64,000 bases of DNA from a virus: IMG/VR virus record IMGVR_UViG_3300037483_000453, positions 32,001 through 96,000 of that record, one strand, 5' to 3'. Within the stretch, counting starts at the first letter, position 1. Each line of letters starts with the position of its first letter. A program made the position numbers and the translations under genes. Below are positions 25,001-45,052 of this stretch, piece by piece. Under the pieces are notes generated by a model, which ran no database searches, was not told where the DNA came from, and saw only the letters and a list, made by a program, of their open reading frames with translations.

Positions 25001-25331
25001 TCCGATGCAGCAGATGCAGAGTTCACTGAGTTTGCAGCAGGAGACCGCAGCGGCTGAGGGCTCTAATCAGGAGGCGATGGGGGTCGACATACAGCAGTTG
25101 GCCCAGCAGTTGGCCCAGCAGGTGGCCGAGATACCCCCAGACCAGCAGCAAGTTGCACTTGAGAACCTCGCAGCTCAGAGTCCAGATCTCGCACAAATGG
25201 TTCAGCAGATTTTGCAGCAGCTGCAGGGACCCGCAGGCTCACAGGGGGCGTTGACCCAGTCGGTATCCCAGGTGGATATGCGGCCACAGCCTGAGGTACT
25301 TCCGGCCCGTCGTGTAGCTGCAGCGATCTGA
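22047..25331 (+). CDS. Portal protein with zinc-ribbon insertion, an intein and a Gln-rich tail (about 651 aa after splicing)
   Basis: RWCRYYFLTNPLINATVFKLSEYP, DYHTYGNAMV, HMKRP..GWGTP, GVPREFL are portal-like motifs; CQHC...CPKCG. Confidence 0.75.
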   Translation: MSFGLGGQGSGAGLGTTRLSTQGRIQGGITQGVSYPSPFFDVAHTYLPATVKQLFRWCRYYFLTNPLINATVFKLSEYPITDISVEHENADVKERWETYFREHLRFRPFQIECGLDYHTYGNAMVSLGFPFHKYLKCQHCRLTERADKIRQYWTFTNLNFRLNCPKCGNVSEAEATDFYYRDANAINTIRWNCEHVEVTYNDVTGQSTYFYTIPPTVRNDVVIGKKDVVESVPQVFIQAMRERKGVVFSKDNFFHMKRPTLAQQDRGWGTPIILPVLKDTFYMQIMKKAQEAILLEHIVPLRVLFPQAGSGSSDPYTTVNLTDWRDHVGAEIARWRQDCVSPDTLVETPDGVAAAEAITEGDLLRDHLGGYSRVKKVWKRPLRAGEKAYSIRARGLGGVIPVVSEGHPFLAAKKLNNGNGHKLGEAGYIRAKDLSEGDYIGYPLRRERTPWDVLDLAQHTDRACTDSWCYVDHVDDAAPRAYEFLVECGPPEDRESLLKERGWTVNQYKAAQAAYREGRVLRRVPRYLSLTDDFLWVLGLYLAEGSVSRKQVLFAANKKEHELYERVYRFFDQVFDASGFTSDKGGNGCQHVFSSVVAAQVFSSLCAGTATTKRIHRRLLEASDSQVTSLLRGAFDGDGCAHNDGSSNKSSIGVASPQLACGIQRLLLSLGVPAGISYKPPHQYDICGKTGMSNGCHSVGVYGSSNTKMRALFEGREFHGVLQPTMGVERDGYFWFRISEIEESHTDEVIGFQMEDSEVSVRLDDGEAHGTFCLHGMASANSNYIPILPLPIGNQTIGGDGRALLLTQEIQTLSEHIMSGLGVPREFLLGGMSYSGSNVSLRMLENQFLGFILRHKQLANWTMKQVAAYMGWPEATIRFKPFKMADDIQRKAYLFQLNQAQKVSDRTLLADADLDQVKEDRIMMQETDLRLEATRKQQLALAEVQGEAQVVMSKAQVKAQQVMAQAQNSGVAPGEPGGGETGAPNPMQQMQSSLSLQQETAAAEGSNQEAMGVDIQQLAQQLAQQVAEIPPDQQQVALENLAAQSPDLAQMVQQILQQLQGPAGSQGALTQSVSQVDMRPQPEVLPARRVAAAI
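23061..24389 (+). mobile_element. Portal intein (443 aa, LAGLIDADG)
   Basis: RWRQD/CVSPDTLVETPDG...HGMASAN/SNYIP; VLGLYLAEG, LRGAFDGDG. Confidence 0.9.
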
Positions 25332-25388: not shown

Positions 25389-26738
25389 CTAATCGAGTTC
25401 TATCTCATAGGGCGCCAGGAGCTCCTGGTCATCACTGACTATGACGAGGTCTCCCCACAAGGCAGGCCGGCGTCCATACCCTGTGGGAATGATGCACCAG
25501 ATGACCTTCATGTTTTTGGGCGCATGCTTGGGGGCCGCTCCATCACCATCCGTGAGATAGATGAGTATGTCTGGGGTAGGGTTGAGTGTCTGTGCAAGTT
25601 CGATGGCAGGGCAGAAGCTGGTACCGCCACCTCCGTATACAGGGAGCGAGTGGATGTCTCTCATGCGGATACGTCGAGGCGTTATTGCTACCGCCGCGTC
25701 CGCGTCAATGAACCAGGCATCCTCGATGCCTAGCTGACCAAGAATACCCTTGATTTCAGCGTTCACTGACAATATTTGGTCTGGGCCCATGGACCCAGAG
25801 CTATCTCGAACAAGCATAATCTCTGGTTTTCGATCGATCATGCCTGGTCGAACTATTCCCCTCGAATAGGAGCGTTTGGATGGGCGTCTCAATGAAAAGT
25901 CTGCTCGCCCTGATAAGACACGTCCTGAACACCTGCGAATAACGGAGCGCAGGCGTGAGCGCCAGGGGACAACAGATTTTCTGTTGTCGTCTTCAAGCAG
26001 CTGTTTGAGGAAGCCCGGAACCTTGCCACGGCCCTGGGCAGCAGCTTCTCGAGCCTGTGCTACTGCTTCTTTGCGTATACGCTGTTTGTCGGCTCCAGTT
26101 CTACCGATCTCAGCATCAACTTTGCTTTCTAGGCTGCTGTCACCATTGCCGCCACAGCTGCCGCATTTACCTGCCCCGACTTTACCGCTGCTGCCACCAA
26201 ACTTTTCACAGATGGCCTTGTATTTGTTAGGTGCCTCTTCCTTCATATTTAGGAGCAGCTCCACGTACTGTTCACCAGTAAGGTTGGGAGGAAACCCATA
26301 GGTGCTGGAATATATTGCCCAGTTAGGGAGTAACCACCCGCTATCTTTGGCATCATCATTGATGGGTATGTCAAACCCCTTATTGACGATGTCTTTTGGT
26401 ACACCTACTTGGATCAAAGAGTCCAGGCGCTCTATCCCCCTCAGGATGTGGCCAGCTTCATGGACAAGAACACCTGCTTGCATTTTGTAGGTGGCTTCAT
26501 CCTTGTCCATGGTCTTGATGTGACCAGTTTCTTTCACCATGTCCACATACCACACGGGGTCGATGAGCATGACCATGCCGGCTGTGACCCCGAGTGTCTC
26601 TAGCCCCTCCTGGAAGTGGGGGATGAGGCCATAGATGATGGAGGAGTAGTATGGCGCTTCTCGGCGGATATACGCTCTGGCTAGAGATAGGGCCTCGAGA
26701 CAGCGGGTCTCATAGGATTTGGTTGAGTTGTCCACCAT
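25389..26738 (-). CDS. HExxH metallopeptidase-like + vWA domain protein (DUF2201-type)
   Basis: LVHEAGH; MIDAS VRDSSGSM; GGGGTSF; LIYLTDG. ATGA overlap with the AAA gene. Confidence 0.85.
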   Translation of the reverse strand: MVDNSTKSYETRCLEALSLARAYIRREAPYYSSIIYGLIPHFQEGLETLGVTAGMVMLIDPVWYVDMVKETGHIKTMDKDEATYKMQAGVLVHEAGHILRGIERLDSLIQVGVPKDIVNKGFDIPINDDAKDSGWLLPNWAIYSSTYGFPPNLTGEQYVELLLNMKEEAPNKYKAICEKFGGSSGKVGAGKCGSCGGNGDSSLESKVDAEIGRTGADKQRIRKEAVAQAREAAAQGRGKVPGFLKQLLEDDNRKSVVPWRSRLRSVIRRCSGRVLSGRADFSLRRPSKRSYSRGIVRPGMIDRKPEIMLVRDSSGSMGPDQILSVNAEIKGILGQLGIEDAWFIDADAAVAITPRRIRMRDIHSLPVYGGGGTSFCPAIELAQTLNPTPDILIYLTDGDGAAPKHAPKNMKVIWCIIPTGYGRRPALWGDLVIVSDDQELLAPYEIELD

Positions 26739-27997
26739 CAAGTAGCCCATTGCGCAGTTAGGTTTTTCTTACGCCCAGTTTCCAAGATGACAGCCTCTGC
26801 TGCCTTTTTGAGGTCAGGGGACACGGGGTTGTCGTAGGGCCCGAGCCCGTCAGTGATGAGTGCTGAAGCGTGCGTGGCAACAATGTCCCAGTGACCTACG
26901 TTGCCCAGGTCTGCGAGGCGAAGCCACGCTTGTGTGGCCAGCTGCATCCGCTCTTGGCCCTCGGGTAGCCCAATCACCAAGGAGGTGATTGAGGCATAGG
27001 TGGCGTGCACCCGGTCTAGTTGCCTGGGGATCGACCATCCCCCTGCAAGGACGACCCGGGGGTCTGGTAGGTCAGCCTCGATGGCCCAAGCCAAGTACTC
27101 AGCGGCTGCGCCCTCACCCACGCACGCTTCCATCATCAGGTTCTCCAGGTTGGATTCTAGGCCCAGGCAACGCACGGTGGCCATACAGCGGAATGCAAAC
27201 TCCCAGCTGCGGTCAGAGGGCCAGCAGTATCCAGCTTGTGCATTGTCCGGCTTGGGCTGTTGATTGCGGATGGAGTCGTGCCCGCGCACGAAGCCAACCC
27301 AAGACCCCTTTATCTGAGGCCAGACCCCCGACCACTCTTCCTTGAGACGCGCGGTTGGGGCATTGAGTGGCCTCACAGCTTGAGATCCCTCAGACAGAAT
27401 CCAGTTAATCAGTTTATCAACTGGTGGCTTGCCCACATAGAAGTGTGCAGACCGGTTGGCAAAGGGTGCCTCAAGCCCCCACCCTCCGGCTGAGTACTCC
27501 GGAGGGTTAGCAGCCATCAATATTCGTATGTTGGGGTGGAACCTGACAGCGCCTACACGCCTATCCAGCACCATGCTGAGCATAGCTCCTTGTACCGCCG
27601 GGGCAGCACAGCTCACTTCATCAAGGAACAGCAGTCCGCCACCCATGTCATTCAAGATGGTGACCTGGGTGAGCATGCAAGCTGACATGAGTTTGTCCGC
27701 CAGTACTACTGGTAGTGAGCTGAAGTCCTCGGGCGCGTGGGTACCCGGGTACACCACCTCTACATGCAGGCCCAGCTTGGCAGCGGCCTGTTTGATAATG
27801 GCCGATTTACCAATGCCTGACAGTCCCCAGAGGATACCGGGCATTCCCATTGGGCAAGAGTCACTGCGGGGGTCTTTCATAGGCGTCATTAGCAGTGCCA
27901 GCATGACGTTTTCCAGGTGACTTGTTGCGTCGGGCATGAGTGCCCCACCGGTTACTTTTTGAATCTCTGTCTCTATGGCTGCTTGCTCGTTGGTCAT
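26738..27997 (-). CDS. MoxR-like AAA+ ATPase
   Basis: Walker A GLSGIGKS, Walker B LLFLDE, sensor MAANPP, PFANR, PSDRSWE; start at MTNEQ. Confidence 0.88.
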   Translation of the reverse strand: MTNEQAAIETEIQKVTGGALMPDATSHLENVMLALLMTPMKDPRSDSCPMGMPGILWGLSGIGKSAIIKQAAAKLGLHVEVVYPGTHAPEDFSSLPVVLADKLMSACMLTQVTILNDMGGGLLFLDEVSCAAPAVQGAMLSMVLDRRVGAVRFHPNIRILMAANPPEYSAGGWGLEAPFANRSAHFYVGKPPVDKLINWILSEGSQAVRPLNAPTARLKEEWSGVWPQIKGSWVGFVRGHDSIRNQQPKPDNAQAGYCWPSDRSWEFAFRCMATVRCLGLESNLENLMMEACVGEGAAAEYLAWAIEADLPDPRVVLAGGWSIPRQLDRVHATYASITSLVIGLPEGQERMQLATQAWLRLADLGNVGHWDIVATHASALITDGLGPYDNPVSPDLKKAAEAVILETGRKKNLTAQWAT

Positions 27998-27999
27998 TT

Positions 28000-28572
28000 T
28001 TACCCGGTCTTGGTGTAGGCGCAGTTGGCGCAGTTGCTGTCCTCTTCTGCAGGGCAGCCATTTCTCCAGCATCGAATCGCGGTGCCCTCAGGACACTCAT
28101 GGTATTGCTTCACGGGCTCATCCCAGAGCTCGTCAACGACATCTGAGTTCAGCATGTTGATGCAGCTTATGCACAAGACGTGTGGATCAGGGCTGGTGCA
28201 TTTGAAGGTGGTTCCGCCATACTCTCCGTTGGGGTATCGGGATGCCTGCCGGACTTCACCAGCTGTGATTATGCCGACAACTTCACCAGTGCGAATCCCA
28301 CTATGGCATGTGCTGCAGTTAGTGATTGATTGGTCATCGTCGACCAAGGGGACGTCCCGCTTGTAATCAGCTAGCTCCTCCTTGGAGCAGTCCCAGCAAC
28401 TCTCACAGAAAAACTGTGGTTCCCAAAGGAAGTCACCGTCTTCGAAGATCAGGGGCGAATACAACATCCCCTTCTCAGTTAGATGGGCAATCACTATGGT
28501 GACGACATAGGTTTCCTCCGTGAACTGTATGGTGTCACCGCACGTAACACAGGAGAAGTCGGGGGTTGCCAA
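28000..28572 (-). CDS. Acidic multi-zinc-finger protein
   Basis: CVTC...CESC, CSTC...CISC and a C-terminal Cys cluster. TTG start behind AGGAG. Confidence 0.75.
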   Translation of the reverse strand: MATPDFSCVTCGDTIQFTEETYVVTIVIAHLTEKGMLYSPLIFEDGDFLWEPQFFCESCWDCSKEELADYKRDVPLVDDDQSITNCSTCHSGIRTGEVVGIITAGEVRQASRYPNGEYGGTTFKCTSPDPHVLCISCINMLNSDVVDELWDEPVKQYHECPEGTAIRCWRNGCPAEEDSNCANCAYTKTG

Positions 28573-28583
28573 GTCAAGTGCTC

Positions 28584-29171
28584 CTAGATGTCGGCCGTTT
28601 CCCATAGCAGGTTGTTCCTCTCTACCCGCACCCATCTGGCGTTGATAGTCTCGAGTCTTGGGTCCGGGCCATAGCCCGTGTATCTGTCCATGTCTGCTAG
28701 CAGCATGTGCATTTCTTCTCTGTCTGATACGCCTCCGTCGTGAACACGCCGTATGACTTGCAGGTTACTGGGCAGTACCCCAGGGTAGTGCTCACGGAGC
28801 CTGAGTTCTCTGTCCAGTAGGTCATCGTCGAGGTCCTCCTCATCGACGCAGAATCCAAACCATCCTGGGTCAGCTACGTCGGGGTAGTCCGTGCCGGCCC
28901 AATGACAGGGGCTGCCAGGTTTAGCAATGCCAATGAGGACCTCTAGGTCACGCTGGTTGCAGAATGTAACAAATCCCTTGTTGTCCAGGAACTTGGCCCT
29001 CACCCCGTTCAATCGGCGTCTGCGGATTGGCGCACACAGGTACTGCAGAGTCCACACTCGACCCAAGGTCTTGAGGTCCAAGCATTGAAAACCGGGGAGT
29101 CCAAAGTTCTCTTCTAGGATCCGTGTCCCTGGTATAGTGGCTAGCCGTACCTTGTTTGGATTGACAAGCAC
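28584..29171 (-). CDS. Hypothetical protein
   Basis: 195-aa ORF with GTG start abutting the upstream stop. Confidence 0.75.
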   Translation of the reverse strand: MLVNPNKVRLATIPGTRILEENFGLPGFQCLDLKTLGRVWTLQYLCAPIRRRRLNGVRAKFLDNKGFVTFCNQRDLEVLIGIAKPGSPCHWAGTDYPDVADPGWFGFCVDEEDLDDDLLDRELRLREHYPGVLPSNLQVIRRVHDGGVSDREEMHMLLADMDRYTGYGPDPRLETINARWVRVERNNLLWETADI

Positions 29172-29255
29172 CTACTGCCCCTCACGTGCTACACAGTGTT
29201 GTGCCCACAGGAGCAAGCCCTGGAAGAATGAGACTGCACATAGAAGGAGGACCAT
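29172..29255 (-). CDS. 27-aa hydrophobic micro-protein (MVLLLCAVSFFQGLLLWAQHCVAREGQ)
   Basis: Hand-translated. AGGAG RBS; ATG directly after the upstream TAA; TAG directly before the next GTG. Confidence 0.5.
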   Translation of the reverse strand: MVLLLCAVSFFQGLLLWAQHCVAREGQ

Positions 29256-29399
29256 TTATTCTCCTAGCTGTTCATCCTTGGCGACCTCGTCCTGCCCTTC
29301 CTCGGGCTCGCCATACAACTCGTTGAGGTCCTTCTGGAACTGCTCTCCGGAGTTCTCAAAACTTCGCTCATCTTTGCTACACTTATTTTTTGGACCCAT
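29256..29399 (-). CDS. 47-aa acidic micro-protein
   Basis: MGPKNK...QLGE behind AGGAG; this is the trimmed form of track ORF 29256..29516. Confidence 0.55.
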   Translation of the reverse strand: MGPKNKCSKDERSFENSGEQFQKDLNELYGEPEEGQDEVAKDEQLGE

Positions 29400-29429
29400 A
29401 CGTCTCCTACGTTGCTCATGTCTACTGTT

Positions 29430-29439
29430 ATTATCCCCG
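29430..29439 (-). promoter_or_regulatory. Candidate phage promoter motif (CGGGGATAAT)
   Basis: 32 nt upstream of the first gene of the AAA/vWA cassette. Confidence 0.45.
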
Positions 29440-29509
29440 TATTCAGAGATTGCTTTCATGCGCTGGCTCACTGATCTAGGGCGCTGCATGGGGTACAATA
29501 GGGCTTGAT

Positions 29510-32500
29510 ATGGCACACGTAGACCACACCGCTGCCTACGAGGACCTCCGAGACAACGTCTTGGCGGGCATTCGTGGTTCCTTTCCCATTGAGGGGGCTC
29601 AACAAACAGTTGAACTGCACGGCTTGGAAGTGAAGGAAGGGGACCTCCACGCTGACGATATCAAGGGTCAGCACCAGGCCAAGATTCAAGGCAAGACGTG
29701 GGCATCTACTGTTTTCGGGGACCTGTCAGTCCGAGACAACAAAACTGGGGAAGTCATCAGTCGGAAGAAAATACGCATGGCAGAGGTGCCACGGGTTACC
29801 CGAAGGCGTAGTCACATTATCAATGGGTCTGAGTACCAGGCGGACAATCAATGGCAGCTCAAGCCAGGTATCTACACCAAGCGCAGGGTCAACGGTGAGC
29901 TTGAGGCTGTATTCAATGTAACCAACCGACGCAACTTTGATATTGTGTTCAATCCTGAGAACAAACAGTTCATGATGCAGCGTGGTGGCTCAAAGGCCAT
30001 CCCGGTTTACCCATTACTTAAGACCCTGGGTGTGGATGATGACGCACTGAAGCATTCGTGGGGAGCAGACATTTTCGCTGCTAACAAGGATGCTAAAGGT
30101 GTCGCCACGGGCGTCGAGAAGTTTTTTCGTGTTGATAAAAAGCGGGCACCCAAAGACAAAAGAGAGGCTGAGGAGTATCTCATCGAGACGATGCAGGGTT
30201 CCACGCTGCGCCCTGACGCCACTAAAGCCACACTAGGCAAGGGGTACACCAGCGTTACTGGTGATGCCATGAGGCTCGCATCGGCAAAGCTGCTCGCTAT
30301 CCAGGCCGGTGCACCTGAAGACGATCGTGACTCCCTCCTCTATAAGGACCTGAGGACTGTTGGAGATTATGCCTACGACAAGATTACTAGCCGAGAGAGC
30401 CAGCGCTCCATCCGGGGCAAGGTGGTTCGCAAGATGTTCTCGGCTAAGGATGTACGAGACCTGGTCAAGTTTGACATGTTCAATGATCCGGTCCTCCAGA
30501 CATTCACAAAGAACTCAGCAGTACACATCGCGTCACAGGTAAACCCGGTAGAGATGATTGCTGGAGCCCAGCAGACCACTGTCATGGGGCCCGGTGGTGT
30601 GCAGAGCCAGAATGCTGTCGACAAGATGGTGGGTCTTAAGTTCGTGAACCCGTCTCACATGGGTTATTTGGACCCGGTGCGTACCCCCGAGTGCTACGAC
30701 GACATCACCGAGGTGTACACGGAACATGGTTGGAAGTTGTGGCGCGACGTAACGACAGCAGACGCATTGGCCTGCCGTATCGACGGGAGACTAGCGTTTC
30801 ATACGCCCGACAAGCTCCACGCATCACACTTTACCGGCACCATGTACGGAGCACGAACGGGGAAGATCAACTACCTGGTTACACCCAATCATCGGATGTA
30901 TGTGCGCCCTTATACGGCTCCTGGATGTTCTGAGTTCAGGATGAGTCGAGCGGACTCCATCCATGGCAAGGACAGGACTTTCTCTGCAGCTCACTTGCCA
31001 CTCAGTGGGTGTAGCCTAGGGTATTTTGAGCTCCCACATGTGGCTGGTAACAACTCCAGTCAAAATGTTGACAAGATCTCAATGCTCGATTGGGCTGAGT
31101 TCATGGGCTGGTACATCTCTGAGGGGTGTACGACCTATACAGAAGAGACCGCTTCCTACCTGGTTCGCATTGCGCAAAGCGGTGCCGTCAATCCAGAAGA
31201 GTGTGCACGCATTGAAGCGCTGTTGAATCGGCTGCCGTGGAAATGGTGTCGAGATGGAAAAAATACAAGTTACGCGATTGGTGTGAAGCAACTCGCCCAC
31301 TACACCAAGCAGTTCGGATATTCAGAAGACAAATACATACCCGAGTACTTTTTCTCGGAAGCGGTTGAAGTCAGGGAGGCGCTTCTTGAGTGCCTGTTGC
31401 TCGGCGATGGCCGTGTGAACAGTATCCGCGCGACTGGCAAGTCATATAAGCAGCAGGTGTACTGCACGTCCAGTTCGAGGCTGGCTGCGGACGTAGAGCG
31501 ACTGGCTATATCGCTGGGATACTCAGTTAGAACTGCCACCTACCCAGATAACCGCGAAGAACGTTACCTTGCTATACACGAGGTGCGACTTCTGAGGCAT
31601 GTAGAGCGTACGGCACTTCGACGAAAGGGTCACTATTTCACACAGGAGTACAGCGGGATGGTTTACTGCGCCACCGTGCCTGGTGGCCTACTTTTGACGC
31701 GACGCCAAGGCAGTGTTCCGGTGTGGCTAGGTAACAGCGAAAAGTCCGGTGTTGTACTGCGGCTACCCATGGGACTCAGGAAGCAAGGCAAAGAGCCAGC
31801 TATACCTTTGTACAACCTAAAGACAAACAAGGTGGAACTCGTTGGCCCCACCAAGTTTGGGCAGTCCGCTGTAGTGCTCCCAGACCAAGTTGAATGGAAG
31901 GCCGGCAAGCCGAAAGCCAAATCCACTAAGGTAAGGATCTCTACCAAGGGTAATGAGCCTGGTGAAGGTGCAATGAAGGACGCTGATTATGTGATGCGTC
32001 ATCCGTCTCAGATGTTCAGCATCACTACCAACCTCATCCCATTCCTAGGCAACAACTCAGGTAATCGCGCTACGTATGCTGGACAGCATATTGAGCAGGC
32101 AATCTCACTGAAGAATCGCGATGCCCCATTGGTACAGGTGGGGACCGGCTCAAGGCAAAAGGGCATTGAGACATTCGAGGGTATTCTGGGACGTCAATCT
32201 GGGCACCAGACTGCTGTCAGCGGGAAAGTCGTCTCTGTCAAAGATGACGCTGTCATTGTCAAGGGCCGCGACGGCGACCATGAAGTTCAACTCTACAATA
32301 ACTTCCCGTTGAACGATCCGAAAGCGATGTTGCATTCAACCCCGGTTGTCAAGGTAGGGCAGCTGGTCAAGGCGGGTGATACTGTAGCGGACACCAACTT
32401 TAGCAAAGGTGGCACCCTCGCTTTGGGTGCAAACCTACGCGTCGCCTATATCCCGTATAAGGGCTACAACTTTGAAGATGGCGTAGTCATTAGTGAGAGT

Positions 32501-35500
32501 GCCGCTAACAAGCTCACTAGCGAGCACATGCATAAGCCTGAGGTGACACTCGATAAAGGCGTAGTCACCAACCCACGTAAGTACCTTGTACAGCACCCAG
32601 ACACCTACGGTAGGAGTCAGCTGGGCAAACTGGACGACGATGGTGTGGTGCGCGTTGGTCAAAAGGTAAAGACTGGAGACCCATTGGCCTTAGCTATGCG
32701 CCCGTTCCAGGCTAAGGACCGTATGAGTCTCCAGGCTATTGGAAGGTCACTATCCGGTCGACACACTGACATCAGCATGCGGTGGCAGTCAGACCATGAC
32801 GGTGAAGTTGTGGCCGTGCATAAGGACAAGGGCAAGACGACTGTCCATGTGCGCACTCTGGAGCCCATGCAGCTAGGTGACAAACTTTCAGGGCGGCACG
32901 GTAACAAGGGTATTGTCACCAAGATTATCCCTGATAACAAGATGCCACAGACATCAGATGGTCGTCATATCGAGGTAGCCCTAAATCCTTCTGGCGTCCC
33001 AGGTCGTATGAACGTTGGGCAGGTTCTAGAGACCGCAGCCGGTAAGCTAGCCGAGCAGGCTGGTAGGCCTTACATCGTTCATAACTTCAGTGGTGAGGAC
33101 CAGCTTGCCAAGATCAAGCGCAAGTTGAAGCGTGCTGGGCTGTTAGACCAGGAGGAACTTAGGGACCCCATTACCGGTTTGACACTCGGCAAAGCGCTCG
33201 TGGGGCCGCAGCATATGCTCAAGCTTATGCACCAGATTGACAAGAAGAACACGGCACGCTCAGGTATGGCCTTGTCAGGCAGTGAGGAGGACCCCGAAGC
33301 GTACGACAGTAATCTCCTGCCGTCTCAGGGAGGTAAGACTGGTGGCCAGCGCGTGGGTTCTCTAGATCTGTACACACTGCTGGCACACGGGGCTAAGGCT
33401 AACATTCGGGAGATGCAGACGTGGAAGAGCGAGGGGCCCGACCCACAGGCAGACCCAGCCAAACGGTGGCCTTCGCAGCATAGTGACGTATGGGGCGCTA
33501 TCCAGATGGGCGAGTCTTTACCTCCCCCGAGGCCCACGTTCTCTTTTCATAAGTTCACGGACATGCTCAGGGCCACTGGCGTCAATGTAGAGAAGAAGGG
33601 GCACCAGATCAGGTTACTCCCGATGACTGACAACCAGGTACTGGCAATGTCATCTGGTGAGTTATCGAAGCCGGGTGAGGTGGTATACCCCTCGCTGGAT
33701 GCTAATGGTGAATACAAACCAAAGCCTGGCGGTCTTTTTGACACTAAGGTGACGGGTGGTCACAGTGGTAAAAAGTGGTCGCACGTCTCTTTGGCTGAAC
33801 CAATCCCCAATCCGGTTTTTGAGAAGGCTATCCAGCGTATTACTGGGCTCTCCGAGAAGGAGTATTTTGGAGTTGTTCATGGCAAGAAGGCGCTTGATAA
33901 GAACGGCCGTGTGGTCGACTTGGATACAAAGAACACGATGACGGGAGGTCCGGCTGTTGTGGGGCTCTTGGACCAGATTAATGTGCCTAAGGCATTGGCA
34001 GCAGCTGAGAAAGAGCTATCAGCCACCTCTATCCCCAGCGACTACGCTCACCGCGCAAGCACTCCTAAGATCGACAAGCTAGTCAAGAAGGTAAAGTATC
34101 TACGAGCTCTGGAACAAGCAGGTATTGCTCCTTCAGATGCTTATGTACTGAAGAACTTACCAGTCCTACCTCCTGCCATGCGCCCTATCGCCGTCCTTAA
34201 GGATGGGAGTATGCGAGGTGGCGACCTTAACGAGCTTTACAAGAACTTCGGGACCATCAACACAGCTATGAAGGACCCCAGTCAGCAGAAGTTAGGGGAC
34301 GACCAGAAACAAGACTTGCGTGAGAGCCTGTATGATGGCGTGCGTGCACTCACCGGAGTTGGAACACACACCGATCAAACTCATAAGGGCATCATCCACC
34401 AGATTGCTGGCGACCCTGCCAAGGAGGGTTACTTCCAAAATGTCCTCATGTCTCGGCGACAAGACATGTCTATGCGCTCTACTATTGTCCCTGAGCCCGC
34501 GCTAGACCTGGATGAAGTGGGCCTACCTCGAAGTAAGGCTCTCGCACTGTACAAGCCATTTGTGGTACGCAAACTGGTAGAGATGGGGGCAGCACCGCAT
34601 GTACCAGAAGCGCGTGCAATGATTCAGAGGCGGGATCCAGCTGTAAGCAAGGCTCTTGAGCTAGCCGTTGCAGAACGCCCTGTGTTACTGAAGCGTGACC
34701 CCGCATTGCACAGGCATTCGTTGCAGGCATTCAATCCAAGGTTGGTGGGTGGTAAGGCCATTCAGATACACCCCCTTGTGACCAGTGGCTACAACGCCGA
34801 TTTTGACGGCGACAGTTGTGATTTGGATACTCCACTACTTCTTCGTATTCGTGGTGAGATAACTGCTATGACTGGCCGGGAGCTTGAGGCGTTGCTTCAC
34901 CCTGGTGAGGGCAACTACATCCAGGAAGTGCAGGGTATTGAAACAGCTGTGCGGGGGACCTGGGCGCCAGTAAAGACTGTCTCGTTTCATGAAGTGCGAG
35001 ACAAGAAGCGCTACCGCGTTACTACAAAGAATGGCGCAGCCTTCGTTGTATCCGAGGACCACTCACTTATGGTGAGTGGGCGTGAAATAAAACCAGGGCA
35101 GCTAGAACTAGGCGTGAGGCTGGACACAACAGAGGTACGTGCGGAGGTTGGTGGTTCCTACGACCTAGGTGTGATTCTTGGGCACTATATGGGGGACGGC
35201 AGTGCTGATGAGCGTCGCGTGTCTATTGCGTGTAAGTCTAGGGAGGAGAAGGAGTATCTTATCCGCCTGTGGGAGCAGGAGATGGGGCATCACGTGTCCC
35301 GATGCGAAAACAACGATTACTTCCAGATTTACAATCGCGAAGTAGCTGCCAGGGTGCTCGAGGTAGCCGGCCGATACTGTGAAGGGAAGTTCGTTGGTCC
35401 CTCTCTTTTGTCTGGTGGTAGGGACACATTGTCAGGATTGCTATCTGGTTATATTTTGGCTGACGGCTCTGTAGAGGTTACGCATAGTGGCAGCTACCTA

Positions 35501-38500
35501 GTCCGTACTTGGTCACGGTCCAAGAAGCTTCGCGACGGCATGTATGCAGTTGCTTGTCTTCTCGGGGTGCCGTGCTCTGTACGTGAACGAGGGGACCAGC
35601 ACGGTAAGAGGAACTACATAATCTCATTTGGTAAAGAAGCCATAAAGCTCCTGGATTACCGGTGCCCCGGCAAGAAGGGCGAGCTAATCGCACGTGCACG
35701 ACAAGACTACATAGAGTCACGTAAAGATAATCGAGTATCGCAGAGTGCCCGTGGATATGAGGTGAGCGCTATAGAGCTCGCCGACGATGACGAGCGCATG
35801 CTTGACCTAGAAGTAGATCATGAAGAGCACGTGTTTTGTCTTGCCTCTGGAGTGCTGCTGCATAACACAATGAGCGCCTATGTGCCCATCTCAGATGAAG
35901 CTGTAGCTGAAGCACGAAATATGATGCCCAGTTCCAACTTGTATAGTGAAGCGTCAGGACGTGTTGTATACACTCCCACGCTCGAGAGTGCCCTCGGTAT
36001 CTACAAGTTGGGGCGCATTGATAAGACCACAAGTAAGAGCTTCAAGACTTCGATAGATGCACTGCAGGCTGTGAATGCAGGGAAGCTGGGGATCAATGAT
36101 GTGGCTGCAATTGGCGGGCTAAAGACAACTGCAGGTCGGGTGCTTCTAGCTAGTGCACTTCCAGAGCCCATGCAGAGCAAAATGCTGATGGCACACAAGC
36201 CTTTGGACAAGCGCGGCATGGGTAATCTATTTCGTGACCTGGCTGATAAGTTCAAGGGTGACTATGGGGAGACTGCAAACAAGCTAAAGGACATTGGTAA
36301 TGGGGCAGCCTCTGGTGCGGTGCCTGTGCTTCATGGGCGAAAGGGGCCAGCTGCCATTCGGCTAGCTGAGAACCCCAAAGATCTGAAGTATGTGTCGATC
36401 CCAGTGCACTCACTTAGCCTGGATGACTTCGAGCCTGACCGTCTGTCTCGCGACGCAGCGCTGCGCGTGGCCGAGCGCGAGGTAGCTGTCATCGAGAGGT
36501 CTTCACTACCCAAGCGAGAGAAAGACCGCCGGTCTATCGAGGCATGGGTAGGGGCATCCAAGAAAATGGACACCGCACACATGAAGAAGATGGATGCTAA
36601 CCCAACAAACTTGGCTATCATGCTGAAGGCAGGCGTGAAGCCGAGCTCCACACAATATAAGCAGATGGTCCTGTCGCCTGTGCTCATGTCTGATGCAGCT
36701 GGTAACCCCATCAACCAGCCCATCAAGAAGTCGTACTCCGAAGGTCTAGACTTGGCGAGTTACTGGACTCAGCAGCAGGGTGCCCGGCGTGGCACAGTCA
36801 TGAAGGTGCAGGAGGTGCGGGAGCCGGGCACCTTTACCAAGCGTATGATTCAAACAACCATGGGGTTGGTGGTGTCTGGTAATGACTGCGGTACCACCCG
36901 TGGTGTGGCCATGAGTATCGGTAACAAGAATGTCCATGACCGGCGCTTGGCGGCAGATGTGAGTGCCAAGGATGCGAAGTTTAGTGCGGGCACGCTGTTG
37001 ACACCTCAGATTGTCGATCAAATCAAAGCTGCGGATAAGGGGGCCACGGTGGTGGTTCGCAGCCCTTTGAAGTGTGAGCATGCGAAGGGTCTTTGCAAGA
37101 AGTGCGCGGGTCTTCGTCCCAACGGCGATGAGTATGACGAGGGAACAAATGTTGGTGTCATAGCTTCCCAAGCCCTGGGTGAGCGCTCTGTACAGTTGAC
37201 CATGAAAGCCTTCCACTGCCTGCATGGCCAGTCCATGATTTTGGTGCGACGTGGCGACATCATTGAGCACACAACCTTGGAAAGGCTGTTCAGCGTCTCT
37301 AAACCGCTAGGGACAGAGTTCGATGCCGACATCGGAGTGATGGAGGACGTCTCCAGTGTCAGCAGTGTGGAGGTTTGGGACCAAACAGGCTGGGTGACAA
37401 TCGAGAAAGTCATGCGACATATGCAGCAGCCTGGTACGGCGATGGCCGCTGTTCGGACGCGGTCTGGTTACATTTCTGTTAGCCAGGACAATCATCCGCA
37501 CATGCTTAGGGAAAATGAAGCGCTGTGTGCGCTCTGTGGAACAGTCCCGAAGTACTCCAATGGTGGGCGGCAGTACTACTGTCGAAAGTGCAGCAAAGTG
37601 TGGGTTGGGTTGCCAGCCGATACAGCTGAAAATCATATGATTGCACCCTCTGATATTGGGAAATCAACACACAGGGCAACTGTAGATTGTGGGCCAGAGC
37701 CGACTGCTACAGTCCCCGTAGTCGAGGACGGGTGGTTAGCGGGTATCTACTGTGCAGAGGGCTCTGTTCAGGTCCGCAACAAGGGTGGTAAGCCGTACCC
37801 ATGTGCTATTCAAATCTCGCAGCTGCCCGGTGAGATCTACACGAAGATTGGCGAAGCGTTGTACGCGGCTACAGGCAAACGTGGGGCACAACCTCGCTAC
37901 CACCAGGTGTACGGGGTAGACCTGGCAGAGAAGTGGCCGAGGTGGTTTGGCCGCTATTCGAACAGCAAAGGTCTGCCAGACGGCTGGAGCGGATATGGCC
38001 GCAAGTGGCTCGCTGATTTCGTGTCCGGTGTGATCGATGGTGACGGAACGCTAAAGGGCAATGATGATAGTGCGTGGATTACGTGTCGCATTGATACGAC
38101 TAGTTTCTTGGTGGCACAACAACTTCATTGGATCTTGCGGAGTCTGGGTGTGTTCTCTCGCGTAGTCCTCACCAAGTGGAGAGAGCGCTCGCTGAACCAG
38201 GGCTTGGCTGTATATTTTACAGTGACGGAGGAGGCTGTCGAGACACTCTCAGCTTCTATCAAGCTCAAGGGGGTACCAGGGAAGCCCCAGGCTAACTCGG
38301 AAAGGTTTGAGGATGTCGTCGACTATTTCAAGGCCTTCACGTTTCTCTCTCCGCCTGTCGTGTACGATATCAAGACTGCGAGTGGTACGTTCTTTGTGAA
38401 CGGTATCTTGACCCATAATTCGGGGGGCGTAGTTCAATCTGCCGGTACCTCTCGCGCAGTTAACGACTTTGAGCGAATAAAGCAGCTGACAGACTTGACC

Positions 38501-39259
38501 GAGAACATTCCCAACTCTGCAACTATAGCCATGCATTCAGGGACCATTGGCAAGGTAGAGAAAGACCGCACAGGCATGAATGTTTGGGTCGGTGGTCTAC
38601 GGCATCATGTTGGTAAGGACCCCACAGGCGCTGGGCTGCATGAAAATCTCCCACATGCTACCAAGTTTGAGGAGTATAAATCATGGCGTCCGCCTAAGGT
38701 CGGCATGCGAGTGCGAGCAGGGGAGACACTGTCCGATCCAAATCGCACGAACATAAATCCTAGGGATCTCTACAGGGCCACCAACGATATGGAAACAGTC
38801 CAGAACTTTCTCGTTGATGAGCTCGGGGGCATCTATGGAGATGACGTTCGAAGGCAGCATGTAGAAACTGTGGTTCGCGCGATGGGAAACTTGACTAAGG
38901 TTCGCGACCCAGGTGATGCAAAGGATGTTCTGCGTGGTGAGTTCCAGTCTGCTTCAGCAATCCGAGCCCAGAATAGGGAGCTTTCAAAGCAAGGGCTGAA
39001 GCCTATTGAACACTCGCCGGTGCTCAAGGGCGTAGATAGTATGCCCTTGTCTGTCCAGGAGGACTGGATGGCCAAGATGCAGCATATCAAGTTGAAGAGC
39101 ACGTTTATGGATGCTGCTGCTGTCGGTGCCCACTCCGACATACATGGGGTAAACCCAATCCCTGGGGTGGCCTATGGTGCAGAGTTTGGCCTGACGTCCA
39201 AGGACAGCCTCAAACCTGGCCTGGGCCACTTGAAGGATGTCCCCATCTATGCCTACTAG
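29510..39259 (+). CDS. Single-chain beta-beta' fusion two-barrel RNA polymerase with three inteins (about 2149 aa after splicing)
   Basis: Beta motifs GPGG, RTPE, GYNFEDG, GDKLSGRHGNKG, NPSGVPGRMNVGQ, GGQRVG; then beta' motifs GGLFD, PVLPPAMRP, LKRDPALHR, YNADFDGD, GARRG, QLTMKAFH, all in one frame. Confidence 0.95.
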   Translation: MAHVDHTAAYEDLRDNVLAGIRGSFPIEGAQQTVELHGLEVKEGDLHADDIKGQHQAKIQGKTWASTVFGDLSVRDNKTGEVISRKKIRMAEVPRVTRRRSHIINGSEYQADNQWQLKPGIYTKRRVNGELEAVFNVTNRRNFDIVFNPENKQFMMQRGGSKAIPVYPLLKTLGVDDDALKHSWGADIFAANKDAKGVATGVEKFFRVDKKRAPKDKREAEEYLIETMQGSTLRPDATKATLGKGYTSVTGDAMRLASAKLLAIQAGAPEDDRDSLLYKDLRTVGDYAYDKITSRESQRSIRGKVVRKMFSAKDVRDLVKFDMFNDPVLQTFTKNSAVHIASQVNPVEMIAGAQQTTVMGPGGVQSQNAVDKMVGLKFVNPSHMGYLDPVRTPECYDDITEVYTEHGWKLWRDVTTADALACRIDGRLAFHTPDKLHASHFTGTMYGARTGKINYLVTPNHRMYVRPYTAPGCSEFRMSRADSIHGKDRTFSAAHLPLSGCSLGYFELPHVAGNNSSQNVDKISMLDWAEFMGWYISEGCTTYTEETASYLVRIAQSGAVNPEECARIEALLNRLPWKWCRDGKNTSYAIGVKQLAHYTKQFGYSEDKYIPEYFFSEAVEVREALLECLLLGDGRVNSIRATGKSYKQQVYCTSSSRLAADVERLAISLGYSVRTATYPDNREERYLAIHEVRLLRHVERTALRRKGHYFTQEYSGMVYCATVPGGLLLTRRQGSVPVWLGNSEKSGVVLRLPMGLRKQGKEPAIPLYNLKTNKVELVGPTKFGQSAVVLPDQVEWKAGKPKAKSTKVRISTKGNEPGEGAMKDADYVMRHPSQMFSITTNLIPFLGNNSGNRATYAGQHIEQAISLKNRDAPLVQVGTGSRQKGIETFEGILGRQSGHQTAVSGKVVSVKDDAVIVKGRDGDHEVQLYNNFPLNDPKAMLHSTPVVKVGQLVKAGDTVADTNFSKGGTLALGANLRVAYIPYKGYNFEDGVVISESAANKLTSEHMHKPEVTLDKGVVTNPRKYLVQHPDTYGRSQLGKLDDDGVVRVGQKVKTGDPLALAMRPFQAKDRMSLQAIGRSLSGRHTDISMRWQSDHDGEVVAVHKDKGKTTVHVRTLEPMQLGDKLSGRHGNKGIVTKIIPDNKMPQTSDGRHIEVALNPSGVPGRMNVGQVLETAAGKLAEQAGRPYIVHNFSGEDQLAKIKRKLKRAGLLDQEELRDPITGLTLGKALVGPQHMLKLMHQIDKKNTARSGMALSGSEEDPEAYDSNLLPSQGGKTGGQRVGSLDLYTLLAHGAKANIREMQTWKSEGPDPQADPAKRWPSQHSDVWGAIQMGESLPPPRPTFSFHKFTDMLRATGVNVEKKGHQIRLLPMTDNQVLAMSSGELSKPGEVVYPSLDANGEYKPKPGGLFDTKVTGGHSGKKWSHVSLAEPIPNPVFEKAIQRITGLSEKEYFGVVHGKKALDKNGRVVDLDTKNTMTGGPAVVGLLDQINVPKALAAAEKELSATSIPSDYAHRASTPKIDKLVKKVKYLRALEQAGIAPSDAYVLKNLPVLPPAMRPIAVLKDGSMRGGDLNELYKNFGTINTAMKDPSQQKLGDDQKQDLRESLYDGVRALTGVGTHTDQTHKGIIHQIAGDPAKEGYFQNVLMSRRQDMSMRSTIVPEPALDLDEVGLPRSKALALYKPFVVRKLVEMGAAPHVPEARAMIQRRDPAVSKALELAVAERPVLLKRDPALHRHSLQAFNPRLVGGKAIQIHPLVTSGYNADFDGDSCDLDTPLLLRIRGEITAMTGRELEALLHPGEGNYIQEVQGIETAVRGTWAPVKTVSFHEVRDKKRYRVTTKNGAAFVVSEDHSLMVSGREIKPGQLELGVRLDTTEVRAEVGGSYDLGVILGHYMGDGSADERRVSIACKSREEKEYLIRLWEQEMGHHVSRCENNDYFQIYNREVAARVLEVAGRYCEGKFVGPSLLSGGRDTLSGLLSGYILADGSVEVTHSGSYLVRTWSRSKKLRDGMYAVACLLGVPCSVRERGDQHGKRNYIISFGKEAIKLLDYRCPGKKGELIARARQDYIESRKDNRVSQSARGYEVSAIELADDDERMLDLEVDHEEHVFCLASGVLLHNTMSAYVPISDEAVAEARNMMPSSNLYSEASGRVVYTPTLESALGIYKLGRIDKTTSKSFKTSIDALQAVNAGKLGINDVAAIGGLKTTAGRVLLASALPEPMQSKMLMAHKPLDKRGMGNLFRDLADKFKGDYGETANKLKDIGNGAASGAVPVLHGRKGPAAIRLAENPKDLKYVSIPVHSLSLDDFEPDRLSRDAALRVAEREVAVIERSSLPKREKDRRSIEAWVGASKKMDTAHMKKMDANPTNLAIMLKAGVKPSSTQYKQMVLSPVLMSDAAGNPINQPIKKSYSEGLDLASYWTQQQGARRGTVMKVQEVREPGTFTKRMIQTTMGLVVSGNDCGTTRGVAMSIGNKNVHDRRLAADVSAKDAKFSAGTLLTPQIVDQIKAADKGATVVVRSPLKCEHAKGLCKKCAGLRPNGDEYDEGTNVGVIASQALGERSVQLTMKAFHCLHGQSMILVRRGDIIEHTTLERLFSVSKPLGTEFDADIGVMEDVSSVSSVEVWDQTGWVTIEKVMRHMQQPGTAMAAVRTRSGYISVSQDNHPHMLRENEALCALCGTVPKYSNGGRQYYCRKCSKVWVGLPADTAENHMIAPSDIGKSTHRATVDCGPEPTATVPVVEDGWLAGIYCAEGSVQVRNKGGKPYPCAIQISQLPGEIYTKIGEALYAATGKRGAQPRYHQVYGVDLAEKWPRWFGRYSNSKGLPDGWSGYGRKWLADFVSGVIDGDGTLKGNDDSAWITCRIDTTSFLVAQQLHWILRSLGVFSRVVLTKWRERSLNQGLAVYFTVTEEAVETLSASIKLKGVPGKPQANSERFEDVVDYFKAFTFLSPPVVYDIKTASGTFFVNGILTHNSGGVVQSAGTSRAVNDFERIKQLTDLTENIPNSATIAMHSGTIGKVEKDRTGMNVWVGGLRHHVGKDPTGAGLHENLPHATKFEEYKSWRPPKVGMRVRAGETLSDPNRTNINPRDLYRATNDMETVQNFLVDELGGIYGDDVRRQHVETVVRAMGNLTKVRDPGDAKDVLRGEFQSASAIRAQNRELSKQGLKPIEHSPVLKGVDSMPLSVQEDWMAKMQHIKLKSTFMDAAAVGAHSDIHGVNPIPGVAYGAEFGLTSKDSLKPGLGHLKDVPIYAY
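30692..31735 (+). mobile_element. RNAP intein 1 (348 aa, LAGLIDADG) in the beta region
   Basis: RTPE/CYDDITEV...VWLGN/SEKSG. Confidence 0.92.
34814..35866 (+). mobile_element. RNAP intein 2 (351 aa, Ser1, LAGLIDADG) directly after the catalytic NADFDGD
   Basis: NADFDGD/SCDLDTP...VLLHN/TMSAYVP restores the NADFDGDxM pattern. Confidence 0.9.
37217..38419 (+). mobile_element. RNAP intein 3 (401 aa, LAGLIDADG, internal zinc ribbon) in the trigger loop
   Basis: LTMKAFH/CLHGQS...ILTHN/SGG. Confidence 0.92.
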
Positions 39260-44838: not shown

Positions 44839-45052
44839 TTGACACGCGTACGTCCCAACCCTTTTCTTTAGCAAAGAGTTTGATGTAGATCCGCACTGCA
44901 GATCGGGCCTCCTTAGGAACTGAATGCCAGAGTCTAAACCCAACGAGGGTACCTTCGGGTTCCTCCTGTGTAACCGTGGCAGACCCAGGGACTATATGGC
45001 CGCCGGCACGATCAAGAGAGGCACGAAGTTCGTCTACCCAGGTTTGAATCAT
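44747..45052 (-). CDS. Hypothetical antisense protein, head-to-head with the terminase start
   Basis: Only sizeable ORF covering the 44838-45051 gap; amphipathic protein-like sequence; weak RBS. Confidence 0.45.
   Translation of the reverse strand: MIQTWVDELRASLDRAGGHIVPGSATVTQEEPEGTLVGFRLWHSVPKEARSAVRIYIKLFAKEKGWDVRVSIRKFAIEFVVLGPYAPPTPRKSGRGTWGGR

Follow-up and report, generated by a model that had tools for sequence, protein, structure and literature searches.

A single-chain beta-beta' RNA polymerase of bacterial type and a co-inherited sigma factor in a lineage of large tailed phages

An uncultured phage with a genome of 184,901 bp (99% complete, 54% GC) encodes a confirmed single-chain beta-beta' RNA polymerase (RNAP) of bacterial type, interrupted by three inteins and accompanied elsewhere in the genome by a gene for a sigma-70-family factor. 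The RNAP gene, the only one in this genome, is an open frame of 9750 nt (ATG start, 3249 codons plus stop) on the plus strand of the 64,000-nt stretch of DNA analysed here (the window). On balance, we favour an explanation in which this chain forms the core of an alpha-free enzyme that is packaged in the virion and works with the phage's own sigma. We found no publication that describes a fused phage polymerase of bacterial type, and the design is apparently undescribed; known forms lie nearby, such as that of Salmonella phage Arash, whose report labels the gene products 'beta' and 'beta'' without mentioning a fusion (PMC10585845). The gene is organized as follows (window coordinates; aa refers to the unspliced translation).

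29510-39259 (+): complete RNAP gene; beta, then beta', in the same frame, with three inteins
29510-30691 (+): extein 1, N-terminal beta, aa 1-394; ends in DPVRTPE (E. coli beta 560-565 region)
30500-30592 (+): rifampicin-pocket segment (E. coli beta 505-535); D516, H526 and S531 all substituted
30692-31735 (+): intein 1, aa 395-742; Cys1 to Gly-Asn, +1 Ser; homing-endonuclease domain
31736-33592 (+): extein 2, beta part, aa 743-1361; flap, active-site lysines, C-terminal clamp to GVNVE
32876-32926 (+): GRHGNKG with the two active-site lysines of beta
33545-33625 (+): beta/beta' junction; GVNVE strand, KKGH joiner, QIRLL strand
33593-34813 (+): extein 2, beta' part, aa 1362-1768; runs to the catalytic NADFDGD
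33731-33802 (+): site of the missing beta' zinc-binding domain (E. coli beta' 64-95)
34223-34351 (+): beta' clamp helices, a coiled coil, aa 1572-1614; predicted docking site of phage sigma region 2
34793-34813 (+): catalytic NADFDGD of beta'
34814-35866 (+): intein 2, aa 1769-2119; Ser1 to His-Asn, +1 Thr; LAGLIDADG domain; immediately follows NADFDGD
35867-37216 (+): extein 3, aa 2120-2569; bridge helix, second zinc site, N-terminal half of the trigger loop
36779-36829 (+): bridge helix
36881-37105 (+): second zinc site
37217-38419 (+): intein 3, aa 2570-2970; Cys1 to His-Asn, +1 Ser; within the trigger loop
38420-39256 (+): extein 4, aa 2971-3249; rest of the trigger loop, beta' C-terminal module

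The Pfam domains of the chain keep the cellular order. Beta (Rpb2_6, aa 938-1251, E 7.5e-61) precedes the beta' domains found between aa 1400 and 2570, namely Rpb1_2 (E 5.2e-23), Rpb1_5 (E 4.6e-11) and Rpb1_1 (E 1.6e-6), which does not reach its curated cut-off. Frame and domain order thus agree with the sequence-only reading of this DNA, which had recognised beta followed by beta' within one 9750-nt ORF, and the motifs it named are all in place: the end of beta (FHKFTDMLRATGVNVE, 33545-33592), the start of beta' (KKGHQIRLLPM, 33593-33625), GELSKP (33656) and the bridge helix. Aligned in Salmonella/E. coli numbering, the catalytic set comprises NADFDGD, the two beta lysines, the bridge helix, a trigger loop with its His and the second zinc site. 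Searches with the phage RNAP return bacterial beta' chains with E 2e-97.

The three inteins are exact inserts relative to intein-free homologues (P0002-P0006, 80-89% identity). Each has Cys or Ser at position 1, a terminal Asn, Ser or Thr at +1 and exact borders, as expected of class 1 inteins, and two of the three carry homing-endonuclease domains (Pfam LAGLIDADG_3 and Hom_end). Their removal leaves 2149 aa, the same length that had been estimated before any alignment with homologues. Activity of the polymerase presupposes splicing of all three predicted inteins. The upstream portal gene also contains an intein-like insert.

The spliced enzyme (2149 aa) was initially described as minimal and several hundred residues shorter than its cellular counterparts. 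This holds against beta plus beta' of E. coli and Salmonella (2749 aa), whereas the gap to the shortest complete bacterial pair in our set, Ectobacillus with 2391 codons stop-to-stop, is only about 240 residues. By alignment, the E. coli lineage-specific inserts are absent (beta 225-359, 938-1049 and 1125-1178; beta' 950-1134), and extein 1 is missing both the SI1 insert and the segment equivalent to E. coli beta 3-28. The N-terminal zinc-binding domain of beta' (four Cys, E. coli 70-88) is also missing, leaving a 32-residue gap (E. coli beta' 64-95) that is common to the source phage, all fused relatives, Arash and the Vibrio phage D69. The chain is therefore minimal in lacking these inserts and this domain, but it is not radically reduced, as the bacterial core is conserved. 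In a structure search, the extein 2 model matched bacterial beta chains best (E about 1e-43); on the viral side, the best match (NCLDV) reached 5e-25 and a phiKZ-like phage 1.6e-16. The predicted fold thus resembles bacterial polymerases more closely than archaeo-eukaryotic or viral ones.

At the junction, the structural model pairs the final strand of beta (GVNVE) with the opening strand of beta' (QIRLL) in a hairpin that turns at Lys-Gly within KKGH. The AlphaFold2 model of extein 2 has a mean pLDDT of 84.5, with the junction blocks at 85-95 and a strand at 616-621, a turn and a strand at 624-629. The first impression of almost no linker is borne out, the joiner being the four residues KKGH. 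We postulate that splicing of the three inteins would release a 2149-residue single-chain core of bacterial type, in which KKGH would connect the C-terminal strand of beta with the first beta' strand, turning the two-subunit interface of cellular enzymes into a covalent hairpin.

No sigma gene had been seen in the window, which is correct for the window but not for the phage, as a divergent sigma-70-family gene lies elsewhere in the genome (G000:C1:136634-137422). Its identity was settled by profile, fold and comparison with Arash Gp10, whereas single-sequence tests did not suffice: Sigma70_r2 has no Pfam match in the whole 184,901-bp genome, window included, and the single protein gave no Pfam match and an NCBIfam E of only about 0.05. 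It is homologous to Arash Gp10 (E 8e-18), which itself matches Sigma70_r3 (E 9e-9), whereas a comparison with Arash Gp196 showed no resemblance. When 30 homologues were combined into a profile, it retrieved 63 PDB sequences, all of the sigma-70 family (best E 4e-12). Sigma factors are among the structural matches listed for its model (pLDDT 88), with E from 6e-7, and regions 2, 3 and 4 are recognisable by profile and fold. One copy of this Gp10-like gene is found in five of five complete relatives; the sigma is a core gene of the fused-RNAP lineage.

The complex of the beta' N-terminal fragment with this sigma was predicted with a median score of 0.65 (best control 0.00; one of three runs 0.00). 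Of 80 solved complexes 58 attain this mark, as do 2 of 110 mismatched pairs; the runs share at least 1% of contacts, with partner pLDDT of at least 64. The predicted interface pairs the beta' clamp helices with sigma region 2. This is the textbook arrangement, so that resemblance to holoenzymes of solved structure may explain the good score. The core probably uses the phage's own sigma, binding it via the clamp helices, and would then read phage-specific promoters. A promoter-like motif, G[GT]GATAAGA, occurs in 14 copies on one strand only of the genome; the window holds a single copy of GKGATAAGA, which is the chance level, and the motif lies mostly elsewhere. A scan for sigma-70-type promoters and terminators around the RNAP gene gave nothing above chance.

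We further propose that core and sigma would be produced late, alongside the head genes, and then packed into the virion, which would bring a ready transcription machine into the cell; it would probably be insensitive to rifampicin, because the pocket residues D516, H526 and S531 are replaced. The balance tips slightly towards packaging and an early role, judging from Arash proteomics and from the conserved order of portal, RNAP and terminase genes. Mass spectrometry of Arash virions detected Gp206, a polymerase subunit, more than any other protein (3516 spectra, above the major capsid protein), with Gp216 at 1210 and the sigma Gp10 at 467 spectra (PMC10585845). The preparation comprised 116 proteins, ribonucleotide reductases among them, and the authors allow for carry-over of abundant proteins (PMC10585845); the Arash polymerase is about 35% identical to the fused RNAP and has a split beta'. 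The two flanking genes are the following.

22047-25331 (+): portal gene, upstream of the RNAP gene; syntenic with it in 64 of 80 related loci
45051-47876 (+): large terminase (TerL), GpA-type, PF05876, downstream of the RNAP gene; syntenic in 56 of 80 related loci

Both order and strand are conserved in these loci, so that the placement of the RNAP gene inside the morphogenesis module, proposed from the window, extends to its relatives. A rather unlikely alternative is a non-virion polymerase that is synthesised in the infected cell and serves middle or late genes, early genes being left to the host enzyme, which the phage sigma may redirect. Phage sigmas that redirect the host core are well known, and this one might do the same. 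Such an enzyme would also fit the single RNAP gene found here, as opposed to the separate virion and non-virion sets of phiKZ-type phages, and contaminants are possible in the Arash virion list. It accounts less well for the rank of Gp206 above the major capsid protein in Arash particles, for the conserved position between portal and terminase, and for a sigma that is co-inherited with the RNAP (5/5 relatives) and has the RNAP's clamp helices as its predicted docking site.

Pfam searches for alpha (PF01000) and omega (PF01192) gave no match anywhere in the 184,901-bp genome, so that the absence first noted for the window applies to the entire genome, and neither gene is present in any of six genomes. 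Since alpha and omega genes are lacking in all six, independence from host alpha and omega appears fairly likely, while their absence is also compatible with use of host alpha. In cellular RNA polymerases, the alpha dimer is needed to unite beta and beta'; the KKGH tether would substitute for this assembly role. Alternatively, the fused chain could still assemble on a host alpha dimer, perhaps with omega, the fusion being incidental as in Helicobacter. We regard such a hybrid as unlikely. Fused polymerases of Helicobacteraceae and Wolbachia, about 2900 aa long, do coexist with alpha and keep omega and the host sigma, and the phage chain retains the bacterial core apart from the inserts and the zinc domain. 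The fused phage family has, however, diverged hugely, and the hosts of its cultured relatives differ (Salmonella, Vibrio), which would make a conserved fit to each host's alpha demanding. Furthermore, a packaged enzyme must act at entry, and phiKZ/AR9-type phage polymerases function without alpha (PMC7598289).

In a 48-taxon tree (quick search, LG+G4, unrooted, with no archaeal, eukaryotic, NCLDV, phiKZ or mReC rows), the fused clade falls outside all 26 sampled bacteria, and path lengths within it reach about 1.6 changes per site, beyond the spread among those bacteria. The bacterial fusions, natural head-to-tail rpoB-rpoC fusions in Helicobacteraceae and Wolbachia (Zakharova et al. 1999, as cited in PMC7483510), in contrast lie within the bacterial phylogeny. 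A close bacterial donor was considered and rejected: the best bacterial beta' matches listed are 28-32% identical near full length (at most 39% in shorter segments) and spread over many phyla. No fused-type gene occurs among the matches listed in a search of bacterial genome contigs.

The closest known systems are Arash (Gp206 + Gp216, sigma Gp10; OQ632216, PMC10585845) and the Vibrio phages D69, D148 and D181, which fall in the same tree clade (SH-aLRT 100). They share with the source phage the seamless junction, the portal-then-RNAP order, a homologous sigma, and similar sizes (genomes of 181-187 kb, RNAP totals of 2131-2136 aa). They differ in identity (about 35%), in the catalytic motif (AADYDGD instead of NADFDGD), in having no inteins in their RNAP genes, and in a beta' divided between two genes (1525 + 606 aa; 1527 + 609 aa), with the break at a site, near window position 36115, where the chain of the source phage runs on. 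We therefore include the Arash clade in a family of phages of about 180-210 kb, whose features, a direct junction of fixed length, a Gp10-like sigma and portal/TerL flanks, are all present in the source phage. Members of this large lineage would probably begin infection with their own packaged holoenzyme, and the cultured relatives make the idea testable now.

The initial reading had asked whether the phage belongs to the mReC lineage (Weinheimer and Aylward 2020). The source phage and mReC are alike in being large tailed phages recovered from metagenomes whose bacterial-like beta and beta' are remote from the cellular ones (PMC7481178), yet membership, as an mReC phage with its two genes joined, is improbable. 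In about 70 of the roughly 105 rows of the mReC list, beta (900-1563 aa) and beta' (899-1391 aa) are always different proteins, often in two sets per genome, at a GC content of 24-52% versus 54% here (PMC7481178). The source genome (99% complete) yields nothing at E <= 1 for the mReC capsid family PF07068 (Gp23) and has no match to the mReC terminase family PF03237, its large terminase belonging to PF05876 instead. Fused-family contigs from 12 tested metagenome ids are likewise absent from the mReC list. The distinction is one of architecture and hallmark genes, mReC sequences lying outside the tree; the fused family adds a deep-branching clade of bacterial-type polymerases alongside mReC.

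Other phage polymerases are more distant. Those of phiKZ and AR9 likewise comprise beta/beta' homologues with neither alpha nor omega, and one set travels in the virion (PMC7598289, PMC7824862), but they consist of four or five far more diverged polypeptides, with beta and beta' each split, come in two sets per genome and use no sigma; the source phage has one chain, one set and a sigma. The enzymes of crAss-like phages and YonO also combine both catalytic barrels in one polypeptide. However, the crAssphage enzyme is unmatched by COG0085/COG0086 profiles and YonO is likewise highly divergent (PMC7481178), whereas the source RNAP matches Pfam beta and beta' (E 1e-61 to 1e-11). Cobetia phage Carin-5 (PV155638, about 150 kb) has a sigma gene and bacterial-like large subunits, but in separate genes and in beta'-then-beta order, on a branch of length 2.09 outside the fused clade; its beta' found no matches as a query against viral contigs.

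The fusion itself is widely conserved, the design recurring in hundreds of related phages. All 72 complete related IMG/VR loci carry the whole of beta-beta' within one ORF, and 23 residues separate an invariant Phe and Pro across the junction in 40 of 40 sequences (38-75% identity). More than 120 relatives of about 2150 aa are 57-89% identical, and the design is found in at least 150 clusters at 50% identity; the best 150 of these measure 1114-4739 aa, mostly at least 2000 aa, nearly all matches span the junction, and rank 150 still has E 1e-188. The fusion is thus not an assembly error, and an artefact of assembly or annotation, or a gene in decay, can be dismissed for practical purposes, having nothing in its favour except the unusual length, against a frame open across 9750 nt, intact catalytic motifs, exact intein borders and the same architecture on 72 independent contigs.

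More tentatively, and with somewhat less confidence than we place in packaging, the single chain and one small sigma may together be a complete, self-assembling holoenzyme, free of alpha and omega and injected from the virion by a large, old and undescribed lineage that is distinct from both mReC and phiKZ-like phages. If so, it would be the simplest sigma-dependent RNA polymerase of the multisubunit type known, a compact two-gene model for assembly, promoter recognition and sigma docking without the zinc domain, and possibly an orthogonal, probably rifampicin-insensitive transcription module. As a minor observation, a DNA-pattern search for YNADFDGD returned, among the matches listed, mostly giant-virus MAGs.

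The beta-beta' fusion of the phage RNA polymerase (RNAP) is real. The gene consists of one ORF with 3249 codons (window 29510-39259, plus strand) in an IMG/VR record of 184,901 bp, of which the window covers bases 32001-96000 and which CheckV rates as 99% complete. The sequence-only reading had described a single-chain beta-beta' enzyme in this 9750-nt frame; Pfam bears this out, with beta followed by beta', and every motif cited there was found in place. Two homing-endonuclease domains are also recognized by Pfam. Alignment with five intein-free homologues (80-89% identity) reveals three inserts whose ends are canonical intein borders and which the homologues lack precisely between those ends.

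aa 938-1251, plus strand: Rpb2_6 (beta), Pfam, E 7.5e-61
aa 1400-2570, plus strand: Rpb1_1, Rpb1_2 and Rpb1_5 (beta'), C-terminal to Rpb2_6, Pfam
aa 395-742: intein 1, Cys ... Gly-Asn, then Ser, from the alignment
aa 1769-2119: intein 2, Ser ... His-Asn, then Thr, directly C-terminal to NADFDGD
aa 2570-2970: intein 3, Cys ... His-Asn, then Ser, within the trigger loop

Intein removal leaves 2149 residues, the length anticipated from sequence, and the nearest homologues comprise 2150-2153 aa. Among related RNAP proteins (P0122-P0270) and loci L044, L074 and L076, ORF length varies between about 2000 and 4739 aa, so the intein load differs widely. The portal gene (window 22047-25331, 1094 aa) features an intein-like insert of its own, with a match to LAGLIDADG_3 (aa 626-679) and a weak one to Hint_2 (aa 339-388); the portal of Salmonella phage Arash aligns to it in two pieces, leaving a gap at about window 23235-24386. 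A 123-codon ORF just 5' of the RNAP (window 29137-29508) overlaps minus-strand ORFs, finds no tblastn match among 80 related loci, and is probably not a gene.

The fusion is widely conserved. A word-indexed search returned more than 120 proteins, about 2150 aa long and sharing 57-89% identity over the junction; the contigs that carry them reach 200 kb. A HMMER search of 50%-identity representatives yielded at least 150 clusters (1114-4739 aa, mostly at least 2000 aa); in nearly all of these the matching stretches span the beta/beta' boundary, and the E-value at rank 150 is still 1e-188. Among 80 IMG/VR loci, 8 are broken by contig ends; in all 72 others a single stop-to-stop frame of 2021-2903 codons contains everything homologous to the spliced protein. 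The junction has almost no linker: only KKGH joins the two halves (beta ~1338 to beta' ~15 in E. coli numbering), and exactly 23 residues separate an invariant Phe from an invariant Pro in 40 of 40 sequences (38-75% identity). The AlphaFold2 model of extein 2, the chain between inteins 1 and 2, has a mean pLDDT of 84.5, with junction blocks at 85-95. Here the C-terminal helix of beta is predicted to lead into a strand (GVNVE) and, via a Lys-Gly turn inside KKGH, into the first strand of beta', so that an inter-subunit contact of cellular enzymes would become a hairpin.

The enzyme is of bacterial type. PDB sequence searches retrieved bacterial beta' chains of many phyla (E about 1e-97 to 1e-85), and the extein 2 model best matches bacterial beta chains (E about 1e-43), with viral structures matching far less well (NCLDV, 5e-25; phiKZ-like phage, 1.6e-16). 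Alignment to Salmonella beta and beta' (E. coli numbering) shows that the inserts specific to the E. coli lineage (in beta, 225-359, 938-1049 and 1125-1178; in beta', 950-1134), beta 3-28 and the C-terminal tail of beta' are missing. The beta' zinc-binding domain (64-95; site at window 33731-33802) is likewise missing, as it is in all fused relatives examined, Arash and Vibrio phage D69. The enzyme still has NADFDGD and both beta lysines, together with the bridge helix, the His of the trigger loop, the second zinc site, the clamp helices and a segment resembling the flap tip. The spliced chain is about 600 aa shorter than its E. coli counterpart and about 240 aa shorter than the shortest bacterial beta plus beta' pair in the comparison set, but the conserved core is kept; the proposed label "minimal" thus holds only in the sense of a bacterial core minus the zinc domain. 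In the rifampicin pocket (window 30500-30592), D516, H526 and S531 are all substituted, so the enzyme is likely rifampicin-insensitive.

The closest cultured relatives, at 34-35% identity, are Arash (OQ632216, locus L001) and Vibrio phages D69 (locus L086), D148 and D181. In these, beta and N-terminal beta' are fused (1525-1527 aa) and C-terminal beta' is a separate gene (606-609 aa), whereas the chain studied here is continuous at that point. The cut in Arash and D69 lies near E. coli beta' 555-571, and their catalytic motif is AADYDGD. All RNAP genes of D69 are annotated as hypothetical proteins. In a scan of prokaryotes (one genome per species), the best bacterial beta' among the matches listed were 28-32% identical over near-full length and came from many phyla, with none standing out. 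An unrooted maximum-likelihood tree built from the concatenation of beta with beta' (48 rows by 1972 columns, LG+G4 in a quick search) keeps all 26 bacteria to the same side of a branch (SH-aLRT 100) and unites 19 fused sequences with Arash and D69 in a single clade (SH-aLRT 100). The fused clade is internally more divergent than the 26 sampled bacteria are among themselves. Cobetia phage Carin-5, with separate beta and beta' genes, forms its own long branch. With an uninterrupted beta' in bacteria and fused family alike, the simplest account of the split in Arash and D69 is a fission that came later.

Multisubunit-RNAP-encoding Caudovirales (mReC) have as hallmarks capsids of the Gp23 type (PF07068) and terminases of family PF03237 (PMC7481178). 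In all of the roughly 70 rows covered, of roughly 105 in their Supplementary Data 2, beta (900-1563 aa) and beta' (899-1391 aa) are two different proteins, and fused-family contigs from 12 metagenome ids do not occur in that list. In contrast, our phage carries one fused gene, a GpA-type large terminase and zero matches to PF07068 or PF03237 in 184,901 bp. Three testable mReC features are thus absent, and gene layout and hallmark families, the characters compared, appear to set the phage apart. Cellular beta-beta' fusions occur in Helicobacteraceae and Wolbachia, as cited in PMC7483510. The phage RNAPs of phiKZ and AR9 also lack alpha, but are split and sigma-less (PMC7824862), unlike the single chain and sigma gene found here. 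Those of crAss and YonO are single-chain, reportedly too diverged for cellular beta/beta' profiles (PMC7481178), and the Arash proteins were named simply beta and beta' (PMC10585845). We found no description in the literature of a single-chain, sigma-associated, bacterial-type phage RNAP; among the bacterial-type RNAPs that phages encode, this one is a genuine and conserved variant that has yet to be described.

The proposal that alpha, omega and sigma genes are lacking from the window extends to the whole genome for Pfam matches to alpha, omega and Sigma70_r2, but a divergent sigma-70-family gene lies outside the window. Alpha has no match in five complete relatives either, and alpha independence of the enzyme is a well-motivated inference.

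G000:C1:136634-137422 (whole-genome coordinates; L003:2635-3423): sigma-70-family gene, 262 aa
49965-49973 (window), minus strand: sole G[GT]GATAAGA copy within the window, motif scan

As a single sequence the sigma protein has no Pfam match. It is homologous to the Arash sigma Gp10 (E 8e-18), which matches Sigma70_r3 (E 9e-9), and a profile of 30 homologues retrieved 63 PDB sequences, all sigma-70-family (best E 4e-12). Sigma factors are among the top structural matches listed for its AlphaFold2 model (pLDDT 88). The gene is present exactly once in the phage genome and once in each of the five complete relatives, whose RNAPs are 38-59% identical to ours. Complex prediction of the beta' N-fragment with sigma scored 0.00, 0.65 and 0.74 (median 0.65 versus 0.00 for the best control), passing a mark that 58 out of 80 solved complexes attain, against 2 out of 110 mismatched pairs; at least 1% of contacts agree between runs, and partner pLDDT is at least 64. 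The predicted interface is formed by sigma region 2 and the clamp helices (aa 1578-1606). As this contact is the textbook one of holoenzymes, passing speaks for resemblance and does not prove binding; sigma use by this enzyme is a probable, well-motivated reading. G[GT]GATAAGA occurs 14 times genome-wide, always on the minus strand and never on the plus strand, and looks like a strand-specific phage promoter.

The RNAP gene is flanked by the portal and large terminase (45051-47876) genes, an order common to most related loci. Mass spectrometry of Arash particles ranked its RNAP protein Gp206 first (3516 spectra), with 1210 spectra for the second, Gp216, and 467 for sigma Gp10, in a preparation of 116 proteins for which the authors allow for carry-over (PMC10585845). 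By homology, we infer that the RNAP studied here may be packaged in the virion, a well-motivated reading. Four leftward genes, kept in about half of related loci, lie between portal and RNAP.

25389-29171, minus strand: HNH-endonuclease-like (phrog_1314 match), ATPase (phrog_1297 match) and two unknowns

At 941 aa, the large terminase is a long protein, its recognized part being the N-terminal GpA-type ATPase domain (aa 82-283) only.
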